Shown one piece after another: positions 17,757-41,550 of a DNA stretch of 64,000 nucleotides. The position numbers and the translations under genes were made by a program. Source of the stretch: a bacterium. GTDB taxonomy: Bacteria; Zhuqueibacterota; Zhuqueibacteria; Residuimicrobiales; Krinioviventaceae. The notes below the pieces were generated by a model. The model worked only from the letters and a program-made list of their open reading frames with translations. It was not told the DNA's origin and did not search any database. Every line of letters begins with the position of its first letter. Positions within the stretch are counted from its first letter, which is position 1. The stretch is taken from positions 1,024,001 through 1,088,000 of the forward strand of contig OY843751.1 of NCBI GenBank assembly GCA_963693055.1, given 5' to 3'.

Positions 17757-19514
17757 ATGAAAATTCAAAAATTTGGAGTACTATTAAAACTTTTGATAGG
17801 AATTGTATCAATTATTGTTATAAACATAATTATGACACAGCACTTGAAACTCACTGATACGGGGAAAGTGAGTTATTCAATGGGGTATTATCTATTACTG
17901 ACTTTACAGATTTTAATTGCGGGTGTAACAATTTCTTTTATTGTATTTCAATTAAATAAAACGATTGGAATGCTTGACAAGTTGTTAATTGGTGATCTAG
18001 ATAATGATTTTAAATCAAGTACGAAAGATGAGTTTAGTCTTATAGCGCAATATTTGAATGATTTGCAGTTTAAATTGAAAGAAAAAATAATCTGGTATGA
18101 AAATATTCTTGATTCAATTCCATTTCCAATCTCTGTAACTGATATGAATATGAAATGGACTTTTATAAATAAACCTGTTGAAGATATGCTTAAAGTAAAA
18201 CGCGCCGATGTAATGGGGCAACAGTGTGAAAACTGGAATGCAAATATTTGTAAAACTGAAAATTGTGGAGTATTGCGTTTACGCAATGGTTTTAATGAAA
18301 CGTTTTTTAAACAGTTTGGGATGAATTTTAAAGTTGATTCTCAATATATACATGACTTAAAAGGAGAAAAAGTTGGACACATTGAAGTTGTACAGGATAT
18401 TACTTCCTTGTCAAGAATCTCTGAATACTTGAATTCTGAGGTAAGTTCATTGTCTGCTGATATACAACTCATGGCGCATGGTGATTTAACTGTTGAACCT
18501 GTTACAGGTGAGAGTGATGAATATACACATGATGCACGAAAGACGATGTTGCAATTGAATGATGCGTTAATACATACAATACGAAATATGGGTGAAAAGT
18601 TAGGCCAGGTTCAAGCTGCTTCAGACCAGGTAAGTAGTGGTGCTCAACAGATGGCCCAAGCCAGTCAATCTTTAGCTCAAGGTGCTTCAGAGCAGGCAAG
18701 TAATATTGAAGAGATAACAAGCAGTATGCAGGAAATGGGTGCTATGACAAATCAAAATACAGCAACTGCGAAAGAAGCTTTGATTTTATCTCGTGAATCT
18801 ATTAATACTGCTGAAAAATCTTCAGAAAGTATGCAAAAATTATCAGAAGCAATTCAAAAGATTAAGGAATCTTCTGATGAAACTTCAAAAATAATAAAGA
18901 CAATTGACGAAATTGCATTTCAAACCAATTTGTTAGCGCTAAACGCCGCGGTAGAAGCAGCTCGTGCGGGTGAAGCCGGTAAAGGTTTTGCGGTTGTTGC
19001 TGAAGAAGTTAGAAATCTTGCTATGCGTAGTGCTGAAGCAGCCCGTGAAACATCTTTGATGATTGAGACAGCTATTAACAATTCTGATAATGGTGTTTCT
19101 TTAAATACAGAGGTGACTGAATCACTTCAGGAAATGATCAGTCAGGTAAATAAAATTGAAGAGCTTGTAGAAGAGATTTCCTCTGCTAGTAACCAGCAAA
19201 AAGAAGGAATTGATCAGGTAAGCGATGCAATGGAACAAATGAGTAATGTTATTCAACAAAACTCGGCTAATTCTGAAGAGACAGCTAGCGTTGCTGAAGA
19301 ACTTACAAGTCAGGCCCAAGTAATGAAAGAAATGGTGAGTGAATTTAAAATTAAATCAACTCTATCTGCCTCCAAAACAGTAAAATCTCAATCTTTTAGC
19401 AATAATACCAGGATAGCCAAAAGAGAGCAGGGTAATCAACAAAATGAAAAATCAATATCGTCACCTGAACAGTTAATTCCATTTGAAGATGATGATGTTT
19501 TTAATGAATTTTAA
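17757..19514 (+). CDS. Methyl-accepting chemotaxis protein (2 TM, HAMP, Cys-containing PAS, signalling domain, C-terminal pentapeptide VFNEF)
   Basis: [40 protein letters not shown]; PAS N-cap [13 protein letters not shown]. Confidence 0.95.
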
Positions 19515-19972: not shown

Positions 19973-21736
19973 ATGAAACTACAAAAGAGTGGGGTCCTAT
20001 TACGGCTTGGAGCAGGGTTTATATCCATCATCGTTATTAATTTTTTTATGATTCAGCAATTAAAACTCACAGATGCCGGAGAGCTAGAGCTTTCATTGGG
20101 TTTTTATTTGTTATTAGCTTTGCAGGTTTTAATTGCAGGCATTGTTTTGTTTTCAATTGTTAAACCATTACATAAAACGATTTCCATGCTGGATACACTT
20201 TTAACAGGTGATCTTGATGATAATTTTAAAACCAGTAGTAAAGATGAGTTTGGTTTAATTACTCAATATATAAATGATCTTCAGGAAAAAATTAAAGAAC
20301 GTATTGTTTGGTATCAGAATATTCTCGATGCCTTACCTTTCCCGGTATCTGTGACTGATATGAATATGAAGTGGACATTCATAAATAAAGCTGTTGAAGA
20401 CATGATCAATCAGAAACGCGAACAGGTGTTGGGTAAAAACTGCAATAACTGGAACACAGCTGTCTGTAAAACAGAGAATTGTCCCTTGCATCGTTTAAAA
20501 AATGGTGAAAATCAAACACTATTAGAATTGTATGGATTTAACTTTAGTGCAGAAGCTGCATACGTGCATGATCCCGCGGGCAAGACAATTGGGATGATGG
20601 AAGTTTTGATTGATGTTACAAAGTCAACACGCATTAATAATTATCTTGATAATGAAATACATACCTTGTCTGAAGATTTAATACGCATGTCGCAGGGAGA
20701 TTTAACAGTTGAACCTGTAACAGAAGATGGTGACGAGTATACCCAAAAAACCCGTGAAGCAATATTAAAATTGAACAATTCATTGACTCAGACCATCCGT
20801 AATATGGCAGAAAAACTTGAACAGGTAAAAGCAGCTTCAGATCAGGTTAGCAGTGGTGCACATCAGATGGCACAGGCAAGCCAATCATTGGCACAGGGTG
20901 CTTCTGAACAGGCCAGTAACATTGAAGAGGTTTCAAGTAGTATGCAGGAAATGAGTGCAATGACTAGTCAGAATACTGCAACTGCTAAAGCGGCACTGGA
21001 CTTGTCGCGCGAGTCACGAAATACTGCCGAAAAATCGTCATCCAGTATGGAAAAACTATCAGAAGCGATTCAAAGGATAAAATCATCTTCGGATGAAACT
21101 TTTAAAATTATAAAAACCATTGATGAAATTGCATTCCAAACCAATCTGTTGGCGTTGAACGCTGCTGTAGAAGCGGCCCGTGCTGGTGAAGCAGGTAAAG
21201 GATTTGCCGTTGTTGCAGAAGAAGTAAGAAATCTTGCCATGAGAAGTGCGGATGCTGCCCGTGAAACATCCGATATGATAGAAGCAGCTATCAACAACTC
21301 GGATGATGGAGTTAAATTGAATTTAGAGGTTACCGAGTCTTTGCAGGAGATGATAAGTCAGGTCAATAAAATTGAAGAACTGGTAGATGAAATTGCATCG
21401 GCAAGTGATCAACAAAAAGACGGCATTGATCAGGTAAGCAATGCAATGGAACAAATGAGTAATGTTACACAACAGAACTCGGCAAATTCTGAAGAGACCG
21501 CCAGTGTTGCTGAAGAGCTGACAAGTCAGGCTGAGGTTATGAAAGAGATGGTTTCAGAATTTAAAATAAATTTAAGCCAATCTATGTCTGCATCTGTCAA
21601 GCCCCAAACATCTAACGGAAACGGAAAACATAGCTTTGATGTACCTCGGGTAGCAATACGAGAACAAAAAGCCAAGTCAGAAAAATCACCAGAACAGTTG
21701 ATTCCATTTGATGAAGATGCTTTTGATGGATTTTAG
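19973..21736 (+). CDS. Methyl-accepting chemotaxis protein, tandem paralog of MCP1 (pentapeptide AFDGF)
   Basis: Same architecture and signalling motif; start placed at MKLQK by homology with MKIQK of MCP1. Confidence 0.95.
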
Positions 21737-36531: not shown

Positions 36532-37603
36532 CCAGGGGCAAATAAAAAGGGATGGTTATGATGAAAACCTATATTTTTCGCAAGAGCATAATATTATTCG
36601 CAATTGCTGTATCTCCACTGTTTAACTGTTTTAATCATCAGGACCATCAGGTGACCAGGCCCGAGGTCCCCCGTTATGTGCTGACAGGTACAACAATTGA
36701 TTATACCACCGGACTGCCTTTGGCCAATGTCCCCTTGAAAATAACGGCAGGTATGTTGGTATATGATGTTCGGTTTAACAGCCAAACTCTGCAATCTGAC
36801 AGCAGCGGTTTTTTTTCAATTTCTCCGGTATATCCCGGTAATTATACATTGTACGCGCAAAAAAATGGCTGCTGGTTACAAGGCAGTAAGCTGGAGATAC
36901 AACATGAAGACCGTGATTTTGTATGTAAAGTACCAAATGTAGTTTATGGTCGTTTACATTCATCAAAATTATTTATTGATGATAAAACATTCCCAAATGC
37001 AAATGATTTTTATCGTAGCTTTACTATAAGCAGTTTAACTGGTATTTTCCCAATAAAGTTTTTAGAATATGATCTAAGCTGGTCATATTATTTTGCAAAT
37101 GTAACACTAAAAAACGGCTTGAATACATATTTGTCACATTTTAAGTCTGAAATACCATTAAAGGGAATATATCAATTGGCTATAGGTGGCGGGTATTGCT
37201 GGGGTTGTAAAAAACCGGATTCAATATTGGTGTTTGATCAATGGCAATATACGTTTTTGAATAAATATTCAACAGGTGTTTTTATTAAAGATATTGCCTA
37301 TAACGTGAATGATAAAAATTTATATGCCTGTACTGACTCTTTACTGTACCAGGTAGATGTGAAAACATACGCTATGAATGAAATAGCGGCATTACCCATA
37401 ACCGGTACAATCGCCATGACATGGAATGATAATTATCTTTATCTTTTGCAAGGCACGGAGGACCTTGTCTATAAACTTGACAATCGATTGCGAATCGTTG
37501 ATATTTTTGCCATAGTCGATCAGACAGACAACTTTCAATACACCCAATTGTATGATATGAATTTTGATGGATATAATAATTTGTGGATATCGGTTGAGGG
37601 GTA
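36532..37603 (+). repeat. Direct repeat copy 1 (~1.07 kb) of 38171..39240
   Basis: Starts CCAGGGGCAAATAAAAAGGGATGG and ends GTTGAGGGGTA in both copies; near-identical except ~36941-37199. Confidence 0.95.
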
Positions 37604-37604
37604 A
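36552..37604 (+). CDS. Exported protein A1, probable lipoprotein: carboxypeptidase-regulatory-like beta-sandwich plus probable beta-propeller
   Basis: Signal ending in an atypical lipobox LFNC; LTGTTIDYTTGLPLANV...SDSSGFFSI...PGNYTLYA; C-terminal repeats DIAYN, IAMTWND and DMNFDGYNNLWIS suggest propeller blades (inferred). Confidence 0.75.
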   Translation: MVMMKTYIFRKSIILFAIAVSPLFNCFNHQDHQVTRPEVPRYVLTGTTIDYTTGLPLANVPLKITAGMLVYDVRFNSQTLQSDSSGFFSISPVYPGNYTLYAQKNGCWLQGSKLEIQHEDRDFVCKVPNVVYGRLHSSKLFIDDKTFPNANDFYRSFTISSLTGIFPIKFLEYDLSWSYYFANVTLKNGLNTYLSHFKSEIPLKGIYQLAIGGGYCWGCKKPDSILVFDQWQYTFLNKYSTGVFIKDIAYNVNDKNLYACTDSLLYQVDVKTYAMNEIAALPITGTIAMTWNDNYLYLLQGTEDLVYKLDNRLRIVDIFAIVDQTDNFQYTQLYDMNFDGYNNLWISVEG

Positions 37605-37780
37605 ACTTTATTCAAGTTTACGTTAATTAACTAGTCCGTTATATACGAACTGTTACTTTTCTCTATACTAAATTCAGAATCAAATTTTTGGATGAAAGGT
37701 GATATATTTTCATACAGATTCAATTTCATGTAAAAAGTTTTTATAAAAGATACTTGACTATTGTTTTTTTTTATTTTTTC

Positions 37781-37795
37781 TTGCCCTTGGATCGG
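37781..37795 (+). repeat. 5' arm of the long-range inverted repeat around peptide P1 (pairs with 38166..38180)
   Basis: TTGCCCTTGGATCGG / CTGATCCAGGGGCAA: 15 bp including 2 G-U pairs. Confidence 0.85.
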
Positions 37796-37816
37796 GCGAA
37801 AAATAAGGGGTTAAAA

Positions 37817-38118
37817 ATGAAAAAAATTAAAGTTCTTGGGATTTTTCTTTTATTTTCAGTAATTGTTTTTGGTGGCTTTCAGATTATTAATGTTTCACCT
37901 GCCTATGCTCTAGATAATCCATTTTGTGGTACTGGAATTTATGTCAGAGTGTAATCTATGATGTAGAATGTCAATCTTGTTGGTGCGAACAACTTGGTGG
38001 TGGTCATAGATATTGTTGGGTTTGTCAGTGTTATATTGAGGAAATCGAGTATACTTATATTTCACAGGAGTTAACTTGTGATTATGAGGAGCAATGGCAT
38101 CCCTGCTATGGTTATTAA
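37817..38118 (+). pseudogene. Secreted 10-Cys peptide P1, split by a 1-nt frameshift near 37928-37933
   Basis: Frame 0: MKKIKVLGIFLLFSVIVFGGFQIINVSPAYA-LDNPFCG. The -1 frame continues (Y)WNLCQSVIYDVECQSCWC...CWVCQC...C...CYGY*. The joined product is homologous to P2/P3. Confidence 0.85.
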
Positions 38119-38170
38119 TTGTTAAAACTTAAATAGTCTAAACATACACTGTACAATAGTTTGATCTGAT

Positions 38171-39240
38171 CCAGGGGCAAATAAAAAAGGGATGGTTATG
38201 ATGAAAACCTATATTTTTCGCAAGAGCATAATATTATTCGCAATTGCTGTATCTCCACTGTTTAACTGTTTTAATCATCAGGACCATCAGGTGACCAGGC
38301 CCGAGGTCCCCCGTTATGTGCTGACAGGTACAACAATTGATTATACCACCGGACTGCCTTTGGCCAATGTCCCCTTGAAAATAACGGCAGGTATGTTGGT
38401 ATATGATGTTCGGTTTAACAGTCAAATCCTGCAATCTGACAGCAGCGGTTTTTTTTCAATTTCTCCGGTATATCCCGGTAATTATACATTGTACGCGCAA
38501 AAAAATGAGTGCTGGTTACAAGGTACCAGGTTAGAAATACAACATAATGACCGTGATTTTGTATGCAAAGTACCAAATGTGATTAATGCAAATCTACATC
38601 CAAGTCAAATTTATACAGGTTCTCATTTGTACCCTAATGCAAATGGATTTTATCGTTGTTTTACAATTACAAGTTTAACAGGTGTAATCCCAGTAAAGTT
38701 GATTAGTGCTGATAAAATTTCATATTATTTTGGTAAGGTTACATTAAAGAACGGCTTTGGAAAATATTCATCATTACATGAAACCAATTCTTCATTACAA
38801 AATATATATCAACTTGCACTTGGTGATGAAAAGTTTTGGGGTTGTAAAAAACCGGATTCAATATTGGTGTTTGATCAATGGCAATATACATTTTTAAACA
38901 AATATTCGACAAATGTTTTTATTAAAGATATTGCCTATAACGTGAATGATAAAAATTTATATGCCTGTACTGACTCTTTACTGTACCAGGTAGATGTAAA
39001 AACATACGCTATGAATGAAATAGCGGCATTACCCATAACCGGTACAATCGCCATGACATGGAATGATAATTATCTTTATCTTTTGCAAGGCACGGAGGAC
39101 CTTGTCTATAAACTTGACAATCGATTGCAAATCGTTGATATTTTTGCCATAGTCGATCAGACAGACAACTTTCAATACACCCAATTGTATGATATGAATT
39201 TTGATGGTTATAATAATTTGTGGATATCGGTTGAGGGGTA
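38171..39240 (+). repeat. Direct repeat copy 2 of 36532..37603
   Basis: Same ends as copy 1; divergent block ~38581-38836. Confidence 0.95.
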
Positions 39241-39241
39241 G
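38192..39241 (+). CDS. Exported protein A2, paralog of A1 with divergent central segment
   Basis: N-terminal ~130 aa and C-terminal ~133 aa nearly identical to A1. Confidence 0.8.
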   Translation: MVMMKTYIFRKSIILFAIAVSPLFNCFNHQDHQVTRPEVPRYVLTGTTIDYTTGLPLANVPLKITAGMLVYDVRFNSQILQSDSSGFFSISPVYPGNYTLYAQKNECWLQGTRLEIQHNDRDFVCKVPNVINANLHPSQIYTGSHLYPNANGFYRCFTITSLTGVIPVKLISADKISYYFGKVTLKNGFGKYSSLHETNSSLQNIYQLALGDEKFWGCKKPDSILVFDQWQYTFLNKYSTNVFIKDIAYNVNDKNLYACTDSLLYQVDVKTYAMNEIAALPITGTIAMTWNDNYLYLLQGTEDLVYKLDNRLQIVDIFAIVDQTDNFQYTQLYDMNFDGYNNLWISVEG

Positions 39242-39312: not shown

Positions 39313-39401
39313 TTGACTTTTACGATAATATTTGCTAATTAAATATCAATCCTTGGGTCGTACAAAACTAAAATTTCAAATAAAATCTTAGGGGATTTAT
39401 T
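39313..39401 (+). promoter_or_regulatory. Duplicated promoter/5'-UTR of P2 (near-identical to 39885..39973 of P3), containing the 5' arm 39347..39359
   Basis: TTGACT -35-like hexamer with a non-consensus AT-rich -10 region; CAATCCTTGGGTC arm; AGGGGA RBS. Confidence 0.65.
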
Positions 39402-39704
39402 ATGAAAAAGATGAAAACTATTAGTCTGGTTCTATTAGTAGCTGTAGTTGTCTTTGGTGGGATTCATATAGTTAATATTGAAAGTGCAAACGCCAGGCCT
39501 GGTTGTCCAGTAGAGAATATGTGCCCTAGCTGGTCATATTGTAAGTCATGTTGGTGTTCTAGTGATGGTTTTACAAGTACCTGGATATGCGAATGTCAAA
39601 AGGCATCTGATTTAGACCATTTCTTTCAAGTAGCAGAAATTGTTCCAGAGTGTGATGAGGGGCCTTGCTATTACGATTGTCCTGAACCTCCAGGTGATGA
39701 TTAA
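39402..39704 (+). CDS. Secreted 10-Cys peptide P2
   Basis: 31-aa Sec-type signal (..VFGG..ANA); acidic mature region C-x5-C-x5-C-x2-C-W-C-x10-C-x-C-x18-C-x4-C-x3-C. Confidence 0.9.
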   Translation: MKKMKTISLVLLVAVVVFGGIHIVNIESANARPGCPVENMCPSWSYCKSCWCSSDGFTSTWICECQKASDLDHFFQVAEIVPECDEGPCYYDCPEPPGDD

Positions 39705-39722
39705 AAATAAATAAAATTTGAT

Positions 39723-39735
39723 GACCCAAGGATTG
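39723..39735 (+). repeat. 3' arm of the long-range inverted repeat around P2
   Basis: GACCCAAGGATTG is the perfect complement of CAATCCTTGGGTC at 39347..39359. Confidence 0.9.
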
Positions 39736-39973
39736 TATTTGTAAAACGGTAAAAATGGATTTATTTTTTAGTTAAGATTTCAAGTTGTTGCTCTCTTGTT
39801 TGGAAAAAGTTTGAAGATAGGTTAATATATTTAAATTTAAAAATAATTTTTTATAATATTTTTTTCGAACAAAAATAAAACATCTTGACTTTTGCGATAA
39901 TAATTGCTAATAAGATATCAATTCTTGGGTCGTACAAAACTAAAATTTCAAATAAAATCTTAGGGGATTTATT

Positions 39974-40273
39974 ATGAAAAAGATGAAAACTATTAGTCTT
40001 GTTCTATTAGTAGCTGTAGTTGTCTTTGGTGGGATTAATATAGTAAATGTTCAAAATGCAGATGCAAGTATTGGCTGTCCAGTAGATAATCTTTGTCCTA
40101 GTTGGGCACATTGTAATAAATGTTGGTGCTCAGATGATAGTGGTGGTGGTGCCAGTACATGGATCTGTGAATGTGAAAGTTTAAAATCTGGTAATAAATA
40201 TCCTGTCGCTGAAATTGAACCGGTATGTAATGAAGGGCCGTGTTATTGGACTTGCCCTGAACCTCCAGGTTGA
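39974..40273 (+). CDS. Secreted 10-Cys peptide P3 (paralog of P2)
   Basis: First 21 aa identical to P2; same 10-Cys scaffold; ends CPEPPG. Confidence 0.9.
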   Translation: MKKMKTISLVLLVAVVVFGGINIVNVQNADASIGCPVDNLCPSWAHCNKCWCSDDSGGGASTWICECESLKSGNKYPVAEIEPVCNEGPCYWTCPEPPG

Positions 40274-40298
40274 TGATTTAATATAAATAATATTTGAT

Positions 40299-40310
40299 GA
40301 CCCAAGGATT
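40299..40310 (+). repeat. 3' arm of the long-range inverted repeat around P3
   Basis: GACCCAAGGATT pairs with AATTCTTGGGTC at 39920..39931 (one U-G pair); followed by a T-run. Confidence 0.9.
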
Positions 40311-40347
40311 TTATTTTTTTGACAAAATTTTTTAAATTGGAGTGGGA

Positions 40348-40917
40348 ATGAAGAAAATTAATTTTACCAATTTATTGTTTATAATAATTTTTGTTTTAAT
40401 GTCATTTGAAGTTATATACCTCAGTGTACAAAATAAAAAGTTAACGAACCAATTGAACAAGCGAGTTTATGCTACTGAAAGCAAACCCGATTTGCCTGTT
40501 GGCACCCAGTTACCAGATTTGTCATTTACTTTACAAAATCAGGATAGAATTGATTTGTCAGCGCATAATGATAAATACTTTTTTGTGTTTTTCTCAACCC
40601 ACTGTCAAGCTTGTGTACAGGATGCTGATACATGGGAAAATATGAATGAGTTGAATACCAAGAATCAAGTGAAAATGATAGGGATCTGTAAAGGTGATCC
40701 TGATGTAGTAAAAGAATTTATGGCACTGCACAAGCTAAACTTTCCTGTTGTTCCTGATCCTGAAAATGAAATTGTTAATCAATTTGGAATAAAATCATTC
40801 CCCAGCAAATGTCTGGTTGATGAAAATAATAAAGTTGTCTTCTATTCCAGAGGATCCTCAGGGAAAAGAGATTTAGAGCAATTAAAAAAGATTGTACCTG
40901 AATTACAGGCAGGTTAA
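40348..40917 (+). CDS. Membrane-anchored TlpA/AhpC-TSA-like thioredoxin-fold protein
   Basis: N-terminal TM; GTQLPDL; FFSTHCQAC; FGIKSFP cis-Pro loop. Confidence 0.88.
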   Translation: MKKINFTNLLFIIIFVLMSFEVIYLSVQNKKLTNQLNKRVYATESKPDLPVGTQLPDLSFTLQNQDRIDLSAHNDKYFFVFFSTHCQACVQDADTWENMNELNTKNQVKMIGICKGDPDVVKEFMALHKLNFPVVPDPENEIVNQFGIKSFPSKCLVDENNKVVFYSRGSSGKRDLEQLKKIVPELQAG

Positions 40918-40920
40918 GAT

Positions 40921-41550
40921 ATGAAGAAGATAGCGATGAATGCTTTGTTGGTTATTGTATTGCTCGCGGTTGGTATTCACTTTGTTATACAAATCAATAA
41001 CAACAATAACGTTTTGGCTGAAATTGATGATTCGCTCAAGCCCTTGTCATATCAGCAGCAAGTTGATTACATGAAACAGGTTTTTGCTCAGGCGGACTCG
41101 TTTCGTTATATTAAATTCAGGGACCAGTTTTTTTATCATGTCTTTCAGGATACGGTCCCGGTTGGGTATGCTAAAATTATCGACAAGGACCTTGCCTGTT
41201 CTACCTGTCGTGATGTGAGATATTTATGCGCCCTGGACAGTGCCTTGTGTGTTAAAGAGGTTATACTTATCAGTGAATTGGACCAGAAACGTATCTATGA
41301 CAAAATACTCCATTTAGAAGATGGTGTAAACCGAGTGGTTGGGAAAAAAGTTTTTAATATTGTGAATTTGTCTGATTTTGTTTCTCAATTCATCAGCACA
41401 TTACCAAGTGATAAAATTTTTAACAAGGATGCGGAGATTGATGTAATCAGTGGTGCCACCAAGACCAGTCACAGTATGTATGAGGGCATTAGAGAGTTTT
41501 TAGATGAAGCGGCTTATTACTCCAGGCAATATCATGCGCAAAATTTGTGA
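40921..41550 (+). CDS. Membrane-anchored protein with CxxC and FMN-binding (flavinylation) motif
   Basis: N-terminal TM; ACSTCRD; DVISGATKTS matches the D-x-x-[ST]-G-A-[ST] ApbE target motif. Confidence 0.7.
   Translation: MKKIAMNALLVIVLLAVGIHFVIQINNNNNVLAEIDDSLKPLSYQQQVDYMKQVFAQADSFRYIKFRDQFFYHVFQDTVPVGYAKIIDKDLACSTCRDVRYLCALDSALCVKEVILISELDQKRIYDKILHLEDGVNRVVGKKVFNIVNLSDFVSQFISTLPSDKIFNKDAEIDVISGATKTSHSMYEGIREFLDEAAYYSRQYHAQNL

Follow-up and report, generated by a model that had tools for sequence, protein, structure and literature searches.

Where duplicated genes are subject to interlocus gene conversion, low divergence in the flanks together with a local peak of divergence is taken as the sign of a selection target, and conversion ends once substitutions or indels disrupt pairing (in the passages concerned of Fawcett and Innan 2011, PMC3924837). 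The same low flanks and local peak are found in A1 and A2, two tandem genes for predicted lipoproteins on a 64,000-nucleotide stretch of bacterial DNA (contig OY843751.1 of assembly GCA_963693055.1, positions 1,024,001 to 1,088,000; referred to here as the window). The cases treated in those passages, opsins, Drosophila genes and yeast duplicates, came with orthologues in hand, whereas for A1 and A2 no orthologue was found and the pair is known from sequence alone. A second system with a similar mode of evolution is the S. aureus lpl cluster, which, according to Tsuru and Kobayashi 2008 (PMC2568036), resembles A1/A2 in consisting of tandem lipoprotein paralogues, in homologous recombination at conserved stretches and in an evolving unit that spans two genes. 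The lpl genes, however, have a conserved centre and variable ends, whereas A1 and A2 have constant ends and a variable centre; there is no relation between the folds, and A1 and A2 are separated by a peptide gene.

A third comparison concerns architecture. In the parts of PMC10404256 that deal with the BtuG-type lids of Bacteroides TonB-dependent transporters, a propeller lipoprotein lies beside a barrel, as it does at 10 of the 30 loci examined for the family to which A1 and A2 belong, and BtuG1 (8blw) is weakly similar to A1/A2 in both sequence and fold. BtuG, in contrast, binds B12 and has the larger propeller, and the A1/A2 locus itself has no barrel; by analogy, the family members at barrel loci perhaps work like BtuG-type lids. 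For A1 and A2 we consider it somewhat better than an even bet that they are paralogues homogenised by recombination, in which an old, divergent and probably functional propeller blade has been retained.

Divergence profile, age and assembly of A1 and A2

The genome analysed here is designated G000 and its sister species G001; coordinates of the main features are collected in Table 1. In the codon alignment on which the comparison of regions is based, A1 and A2 are 84.6% identical as proteins, and only three of 315 nucleotides differ in each of the two outer flanks (amino acids 1-105 and 246-350), versus 100 of 258 in the block of amino acids 130-216, in which 40 of 87 columns are identical (46%) and one codon is gapped. 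The first-pass annotation, made from the letters of the window alone, had noted these near-identical ends around a divergent middle, and the observation stands, with its 39 of 86 identical residues corrected to 40 of 87. Outside the block, 231 of 238 residues are identical (~97%), the outer ends being 99% alike. The fairly sharp borders described in the annotation are a property of the protein; the DNA shows synonymous shoulders on both sides, the proportion of synonymous differences (pS) being 0.49 at amino acids 106-129 (12 of 72 nucleotides differ), 0.25 at amino acids 217-245 (6 of 87) and 0.03 outside. The tract common to both genes starts 20-21 nucleotides 5' of the ATG and ends with the stop codon, and both reading frames are intact. 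The G+C content at third codon positions (GC3) is 0.14-0.20 in the block versus 0.35-0.44 in the outer flanks.

The synonymous divergence (dS) of six neighbouring genes between G000 and G001 ranges from 0.21 to 0.59. The outer flanks of A1 and A2, with a dS of 0.03, lie far below this range and were therefore made identical after the species split, in agreement with the recombination or gene conversion that the annotation had proposed for them. The block forms a local peak in both synonymous and non-synonymous differences, with a dN of 0.46 and a dS of 0.99, whose 95% interval (0.59-1.91) touches the top of the neighbour-gene range; the two versions of the block thus likely predate the split. 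Trees were built from 14 of the 34 aligned rows; in them the block of A1 pairs as sister with that of A2 (support 93/91) at a distance of 1.15 changes per site, compared with 0.05 and 0.014 in the flanks, so that neither block derives from another known paralogue type.

The G000 genome is a single contig of 6,535,007 nucleotides (6.5 Mb) without any N. Read-derived contigs came from three runs, which are not independent because all were made on one sample, perhaps that from which the assembly derives. In all three, each middle is present as a separate contig without differences (36838-37229 and 38478-38866), and in run X2 the two middles have depths of 8.2 and 9.3, versus 8.9 for unique DNA, as expected of single-copy sequence. 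The flanks are collapsed in the read contigs at ~1.4-2.3 times the unique depth (18.1 for the 5' flank in X2), and a unique 640-nucleotide spacer contig (37574-38213) with single-copy depth links the end of one gene to the start of the next. No read contig covers the complete pair, and the assignment of each middle to its copy is not fixed by these runs. Because both middles occur at single-copy depth, the A1/A2 pattern is not a collapse artefact, and the two copies described in the annotation are real. The sample possibly contains a third allele of the block; a loose contig end behind position 36976 had no match in the G000 genome or in the compared loci.

Predicted fold and variation of the block across the family

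A1 and A2 belong to a lipoprotein family without a Pfam or NCBIfam model in the uncultured KSB1 lineage. Pfam yields only sub-threshold CarboxypepD_reg/prealbumin matches (amino acids 44-111), and the NCBIfam search gave no match for A1, A2 or four of the peptides discussed below. The family has 11 members each in G000 and G001, and its profile matches 19 of 167 genomes of the phylum, 11 of them with full-length or near full-length members and eight with partial matches only; in the 50% library it has 124 matches at E <= 0.001, many restricted to the N-terminal domain. One relative is labelled 'candidate division KSB1 bacterium' by its source, the only named one among 10 that were looked up. 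Cys26 is invariant in all 43 aligned sequences and follows a hydrophobic leader read directly from the sequence; with their basic N-terminus, hydrophobic stretch and conserved Cys, A1 and A2 are predicted to be lipoproteins.

The AlphaFold2 model, computed from a 34-sequence alignment (pLDDT 92.7, pTM 0.88), shows a beta-sandwich at the N-terminus followed by a propeller; the structures closest to the latter in fold are five-bladed (top Z 17.9, to 3mbr; root-mean-square deviation 3.3, 198 residues aligned). These are the glutaminyl cyclases 3mbr and 3nok and E. coli YjiK (3qqz), with Z 16.9-17.9, deviations of 3.2-3.5 and ~200 aligned residues; compared with them, A1 and A2 are only 9-13% identical and have an added N-terminal prealbumin-like domain and a lipobox. 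A sequence search of solved structures returned only weak propeller and prealbumin-fold matches. By sequence, A1 and A2 are not type II glutaminyl cyclases, as no such family occurs among the Pfam matches of 34 members (E <= 0.1) and no propeller column is invariant; DUF5128 (PF17170) likewise matches none of the 34. Judged by its predicted strands, the block extends from the first strand of the propeller through an additional hairpin, missing in shorter relatives, and blade 1 into the beginning of blade 2. The model thus predicts the block to be the blade 1 region, and the placement at the start of the propeller made in the annotation agrees with both model and fold matches. All seven columns that are invariant among the 43 sequences sit before the propeller, in the lipobox and the N-terminal domain, and this favours a role as a scaffold for binding over an enzymatic one; A1 and A2 are accordingly predicted to be non-catalytic, membrane-anchored binding proteins.

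The behaviour of the block in other members of the family depends on the pair compared. In all five G000/G001 orthologue pairs (C, B2, D, T1 and T2), the block is 86-99% identical, like its own flanks, and more distant pairs of the same type show no dip either, with identities of N domain, block and C part of 70/70/70% and 93/81/80%. Among paralogues, the corresponding values are 95/63/88% for T3/T4 and 76/43/68% for genes 2 and 4 of genome G014, and at the orthologous position occupied by B1 in G000 and B1' in G001 they are 83/50/72%, the largest difference lying in the block. Little dip is seen for genes 3 and 4 (80/76/89%) and genes 1 and 2 (87/78/84%) of G014. Conservation within types combined with divergence between types is as expected of a specificity module. 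The dip also occurs in arrays without peptide genes.

Mechanism and competing explanations

In the favoured reading, recent homologous recombination would have overwritten the framework common to A1 and A2, whereas one blade, likely the surface that recognises the ligand, persisted in two old versions. Exchange tracts would begin in the conserved flanks and run out where homology is lost, at the ends of the genes; tracts reaching into the block would be purged, so that the cell may display two specificities on one scaffold. The ligand is probably a peptide or protein. The commonest neighbours of the family are a barrel and secreted proteases, and some copies in the genus lie beside secreted Cys-rich peptides. 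A one-to-one pairing with peptides would not be needed for homogenisation around two blades.

Several observations weigh against this reading. The block shows no sign of positive selection, its dN/dS of 0.46 (95% 0.24-0.82) being below one, yet above the values implied for most other pairs; the specificity region proposed in the annotation is backed indirectly, by the orthologue pairs and by the dip between paralogues of different type, but not by the substitution ratio. Family-wide, the mean pairwise identity per 10 residues is 0.12-0.31 in the block, among the lowest values, but blades 3-4 are equally low (0.14-0.37), and therefore a fast region below the recombination threshold would look alike without selection. 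When exposure is estimated by a burial proxy that uses no coordinates, radical changes fall on 5 of 22 core-like versus 29 of 65 surface-like positions (p = 0.08). No barrel adjoins A1/A2. Finally, profile and pattern searches, including those of G001, found no orthologue of A1 or A2, which leaves the four-sequence conversion test without input for the pair; the closest relatives in the pattern scans are only P0003 (48% identical, solitary, no peptide) and the G001/G004 loci.

The four-sequence test could be applied to the B pair. Its G000 paralogues, ~50% identical, share 97% nucleotide identity over codons 21-40, which amounts to local homogenisation; the signal of the test is limited to codons 21-60, with five sites grouped by genome versus seven grouped by locus. 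In G000, B1 and B2 have been homogenised at their 5' ends, and the dS of B2 between the species is unusually low (0.04-0.13), which suggests recent exchange. A peptide gene lies between the two B genes in G001 (L031 8130-10778) only, not at G000:C1:1715769-1717969.

Paralogue conversion is not the only possible route to the pattern. There is a distinct, if minor, chance that two ancient alleles of one locus, with flanks alike at the level of strains, were placed in tandem by a single recombination that also brought pep1. Such a capture would differ from the favoured reading in route, not in function, and overlaps other readings; by sequence, paralogue conversion and the capture of two old alleles both fit. 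Two alleles differing most in the block are exemplified by the B1 position of G000 and G001, the syntenic site of G001 lacks the entire A1-pep1-A2 stretch, and the low GC3 of the block relative to the flanks would also agree with capture. Against it, the common tract ends at the gene ends instead of running into the flanking DNA, and no single-copy strain of the species is among the genomes compared.

A quarter-strength candidate, compatible with the favoured reading, is that propellers and peptides are cognate: each propeller would bind one secreted disulfide-rich peptide via its variable blade, the cassette would consist of a peptide gene and the propeller gene downstream, and the redoxin and the flavin/CxxC protein would fold the peptide. 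The peptide family was found only in G000 and G001 (2 of 167 genomes), at three loci, two of which are beside the propeller family; two marginal matches in other genomes have E values of about 0.001. The layout propeller-peptide-propeller recurs at two non-orthologous loci, A1-pep1-A2 in G000 and B1'-pepB-B2' in G001, despite an identity of only 36-41% between A and B proteins. Peptide leaders are constant (dS 0-0.17), while the cores are strongly diverged, mostly near saturation, and the redoxin is only 52% identical between G000 and G001 (L055 9078-9662; dS 1.2), while its neighbours are 90-95% identical; judged by these sequences, peptide core and redoxin appear to have been exchanged together. 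In G128 (L106 2966-10592), a homologue of the FMN/CxxC protein is found amid genes for DUF5128 six-bladed/NHL propellers, with a small Cys-containing open reading frame (ORF) upstream. A short ORF of this locus, without Pfam match, resembles the start of a radical-SAM maturase.

The untranslated regions (UTRs) of the peptide genes also bear on the cassette. Each of the five genes is flanked by a 5' and a 3' arm that are complementary to each other. In these arms 55 of 55 cells pair, including G-U pairs, and at 4 of 11 positions both sides have changed (compensatory); these counts refer to arms chosen by a motif drawn from the same five genes, which are all related, three of them closely. The arm duplexes are equalled by 0, 0, 5, 16 and 8 of 300 shuffles, respectively. 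As the whole fold of the pep1 region has a z of only -1.6, support for the candidate long-range mRNA stem comes from covariation and arm-duplex energy, not from global stability. The 3' arm of pep1 closely precedes A2 and extends into the tract that A1 and A2 have in common 5' of their start codons. The first 10 nucleotides of the A1 upstream tract equal the distal part of this arm, but an arm to pair with is missing there; since A1 keeps only this orphan piece, its upstream sequence likely arose in a unit of peptide followed by propeller.

Other observations speak against cognate pairs. Twenty-eight of the 30 family loci have no peptide, and block dips are seen in peptide-free arrays; B2 is 97% identical whether a peptide is present (G001) or not (G000); G001 has a pep2-like peptide with no propeller beside it and lacks A1/A2; and pep1 is frameshifted just after the leader while the flanking A1 and A2 are intact. 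A nanopore-type error behind this frameshift was ruled out, as it is unchanged in the contigs of all three runs. The two loci may, moreover, go back to a single ancestral association. The leaders of pep1 and pepB agree at 17 of 31 positions compared with 15-16 of 31 for the others, a marginal grouping that was too weak to define two peptide types. The matching of block and neighbouring peptide suggested in the annotation is therefore not established, although the recurrent layout speaks for it. Predicting a complex between mature A2 and mature pep2 gave a score of 0.00 with the controls not folded, which is evidence neither way.

It is also conceivable, at roughly one chance in a handful, that the block is under no selection and simply represents a fast region that drifted beyond the similarity required for strand exchange (61% at the nucleotide level, with one indel), only the flanks remaining convertible. 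A dN/dS below one and the low family-wide conservation of the region agree with this, as do the synonymous shoulders, which fit tracts stalling at a divergence barrier, and the halting of conversion by pairing-disrupting substitutions or indels described in the passages of PMC3924837. Drift, however, would not readily account for a block kept as well as its flanks in five of five same-type orthologue pairs, for identity being lowest in the same segment of independent arrays (T3/T4, G014 and B1), or for C-terminal blades that are equally variable in the family, yet homogenised in A1/A2.

The toxin/immunity version of the annotation, with the peptides as bacteriocins and A1/A2 as immunity proteins orphaned when pep1 broke, is improbable. 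The locus resembles those of bacteriocins in the constant leader and variable core, in a disulfide oxidoreductase dedicated to the peptides and in the turnover of cassettes, and the propeller genes remain intact after loss of the peptide. The peptides are strongly acidic, however (net -6 to -10), unlike typical membrane-active bacteriocins; an intact pep2-like peptide exists in G001 without A1/A2 or an adjoining family gene, the peptides have no Pfam or NCBIfam match, and most family loci lie beside barrels and proteases. Lastly, an assembly artefact in which one gene with two strain alleles was built into a tandem pair is next to negligible given the single-copy spacer and middles and the roughly doubled flanks, even though none of the listed contigs spans the pair and the three runs represent one sample.

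Genomic context and significance

Table 1. Coordinates of the A1/A2 pair, the peptide genes with their stem arms and the redox module (window positions unless a locus is named)
Feature	Position	Strand	Basis
Upstream tract common to A1 and A2, ribosome-binding region	36532..36551	+	sequence comparison
A1, 350 amino acids, predicted lipoprotein with lipobox-like Cys26; prealbumin/CarboxypepD_reg-like domain (~amino acids 42-127) and predicted five-bladed beta-propeller	36552..37604	+	
A1 5' shoulder, 20/24 amino acids identical, pS 0.49	36867..36938	+	codon alignment
A1 divergent block, amino acids 130-216, GC3 0.20	36939..37199	+	codon alignment
pep1 long-range stem, 5' arm (candidate)	37781..37796	+	
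pep1, Cys-rich peptide gene with signal peptide, frameshifted; leader frame stops at 37954, Cys-rich part in other frame to 38118	37817..38118	+	
pep1 stem, 3' arm (candidate), ends 11 nucleotides before A2 start codon	38165..38180	+	
A2, 349 amino acids, A1 paralogue	38192..39241	+	
A2 divergent block, amino acids 130-215, GC3 0.14	38579..38836	+	codon alignment
pep2, 100-amino-acid signal-peptide protein, 10 Cys, acidic; stem arms 39347-39361 / 39721-39735	39402..39704	+	
pep3, 99-amino-acid pep2 paralogue (66% identical); stem arms 39920-39933 / 40297-40310	39974..40273	+	
Membrane-anchored TlpA/ResA-like CxxC redoxin	40342..40917	+	
CxxC protein, SGAT motif, weak FMN_bind match (20.5 vs Pfam cut-off 22 bits)	40921..41550	+	
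Stem arms of the G001 peptide genes	L055 8654-8667/9018-9031; L031 9378-9388/9703-9713		

The neighbourhood counts refer to 30 family loci, some on contigs that end close to the gene. Apart from the TonB-dependent-receptor-like barrel, proteins with secretion tails, S8 and C10 proteases among them, adjoin 5 of the 30 loci (a rough pattern) and a peptide gene adjoins two; an M6 protease is found beside the barrel at several loci. A recurrent module of KSB1 genomes (L036 5322-13075, L035, L033, L034, L040 and L110) comprises an M6 or S8 protease with secretion tail, a barrel of ~830 amino acids and one to five propeller lipoproteins, the barrel being 60-93% identical across genera; this protease-barrel-propeller module is a candidate peptide-uptake locus. 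In one barrel-linked array of G000, the third gene (G000:C1:209186-210184) is broken by three stops, whereas G001 has four intact genes there. A second tandem pair in the window, at 17876-18736 and 20092-20952, is 72-74% identical with a spacing of 2216 nucleotides.

The peptides have no match in Pfam or NCBIfam. The model of pep2 (pLDDT 69) is a three-stranded sheet for which Foldseek gave no match at E <= 0.001 and VIA a best Z of 4.5. A genome-wide scan for small secreted ORFs rich in Cys detected, besides pep2 and pep3, a single unrelated ORF of heavy-metal-binding-like type; a 33-nucleotide match in G001:C2 does not represent a peptide gene, and a promoter scan remained at chance level (38 found versus 32.4 +/- 5.6 expected). 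At window positions 39364 and 39936, read contigs fuse the 5' region of a peptide gene to upstream DNA absent from the G000 genome and the compared loci, possibly from a different strain or species of the sample that carries an additional peptide gene. The module downstream of the peptides shares the SGAT motif and a thioredoxin-like neighbour with the ApbE-flavinylated FMN_bind proteins and the extracytosolic thioredoxin-like relays of PMC8238504, in whose relevant passages a CxxC-bearing FMN_bind protein beside 10-Cys peptides is not described and in whose main text 'CxxC' occurs 0 times. A literature search of titles and abstract openings, with subscription journals and supplements outside its scope, returned no paper on the family or on the peptide-redoxin module.

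The evolutionary pattern itself is already known; what is new here is that an uncultured lineage has a lipoprotein family and a peptide family for which neither Pfam nor NCBIfam has a model. With ~97% identical flanks and one exchanged blade, A1 and A2 represent a natural domain swap that is suited to asking whether blade 1 sets specificity. In the widest and rather speculative picture, to which we give odds slightly below those of cognate pairing, the genus would possess its own polymorphic ligand-receptor system within KSB1: acidic peptides with 8-10 Cys, made with a constant leader and promoter, a covarying UTR stem and folding by a co-varying redoxin and a flavin/CxxC protein, would be read by five-bladed propeller lipoproteins co-opted from a transporter-accessory family, and peptide core, redoxin and blade 1 would be exchanged as cassettes via constant flanks, giving rise to strain-specific channels of signalling or recognition. 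Should the peptides indeed be the ligands, the genes would make up a polymorphic system for peptide recognition, not described before, that has disulfide machinery of its own.

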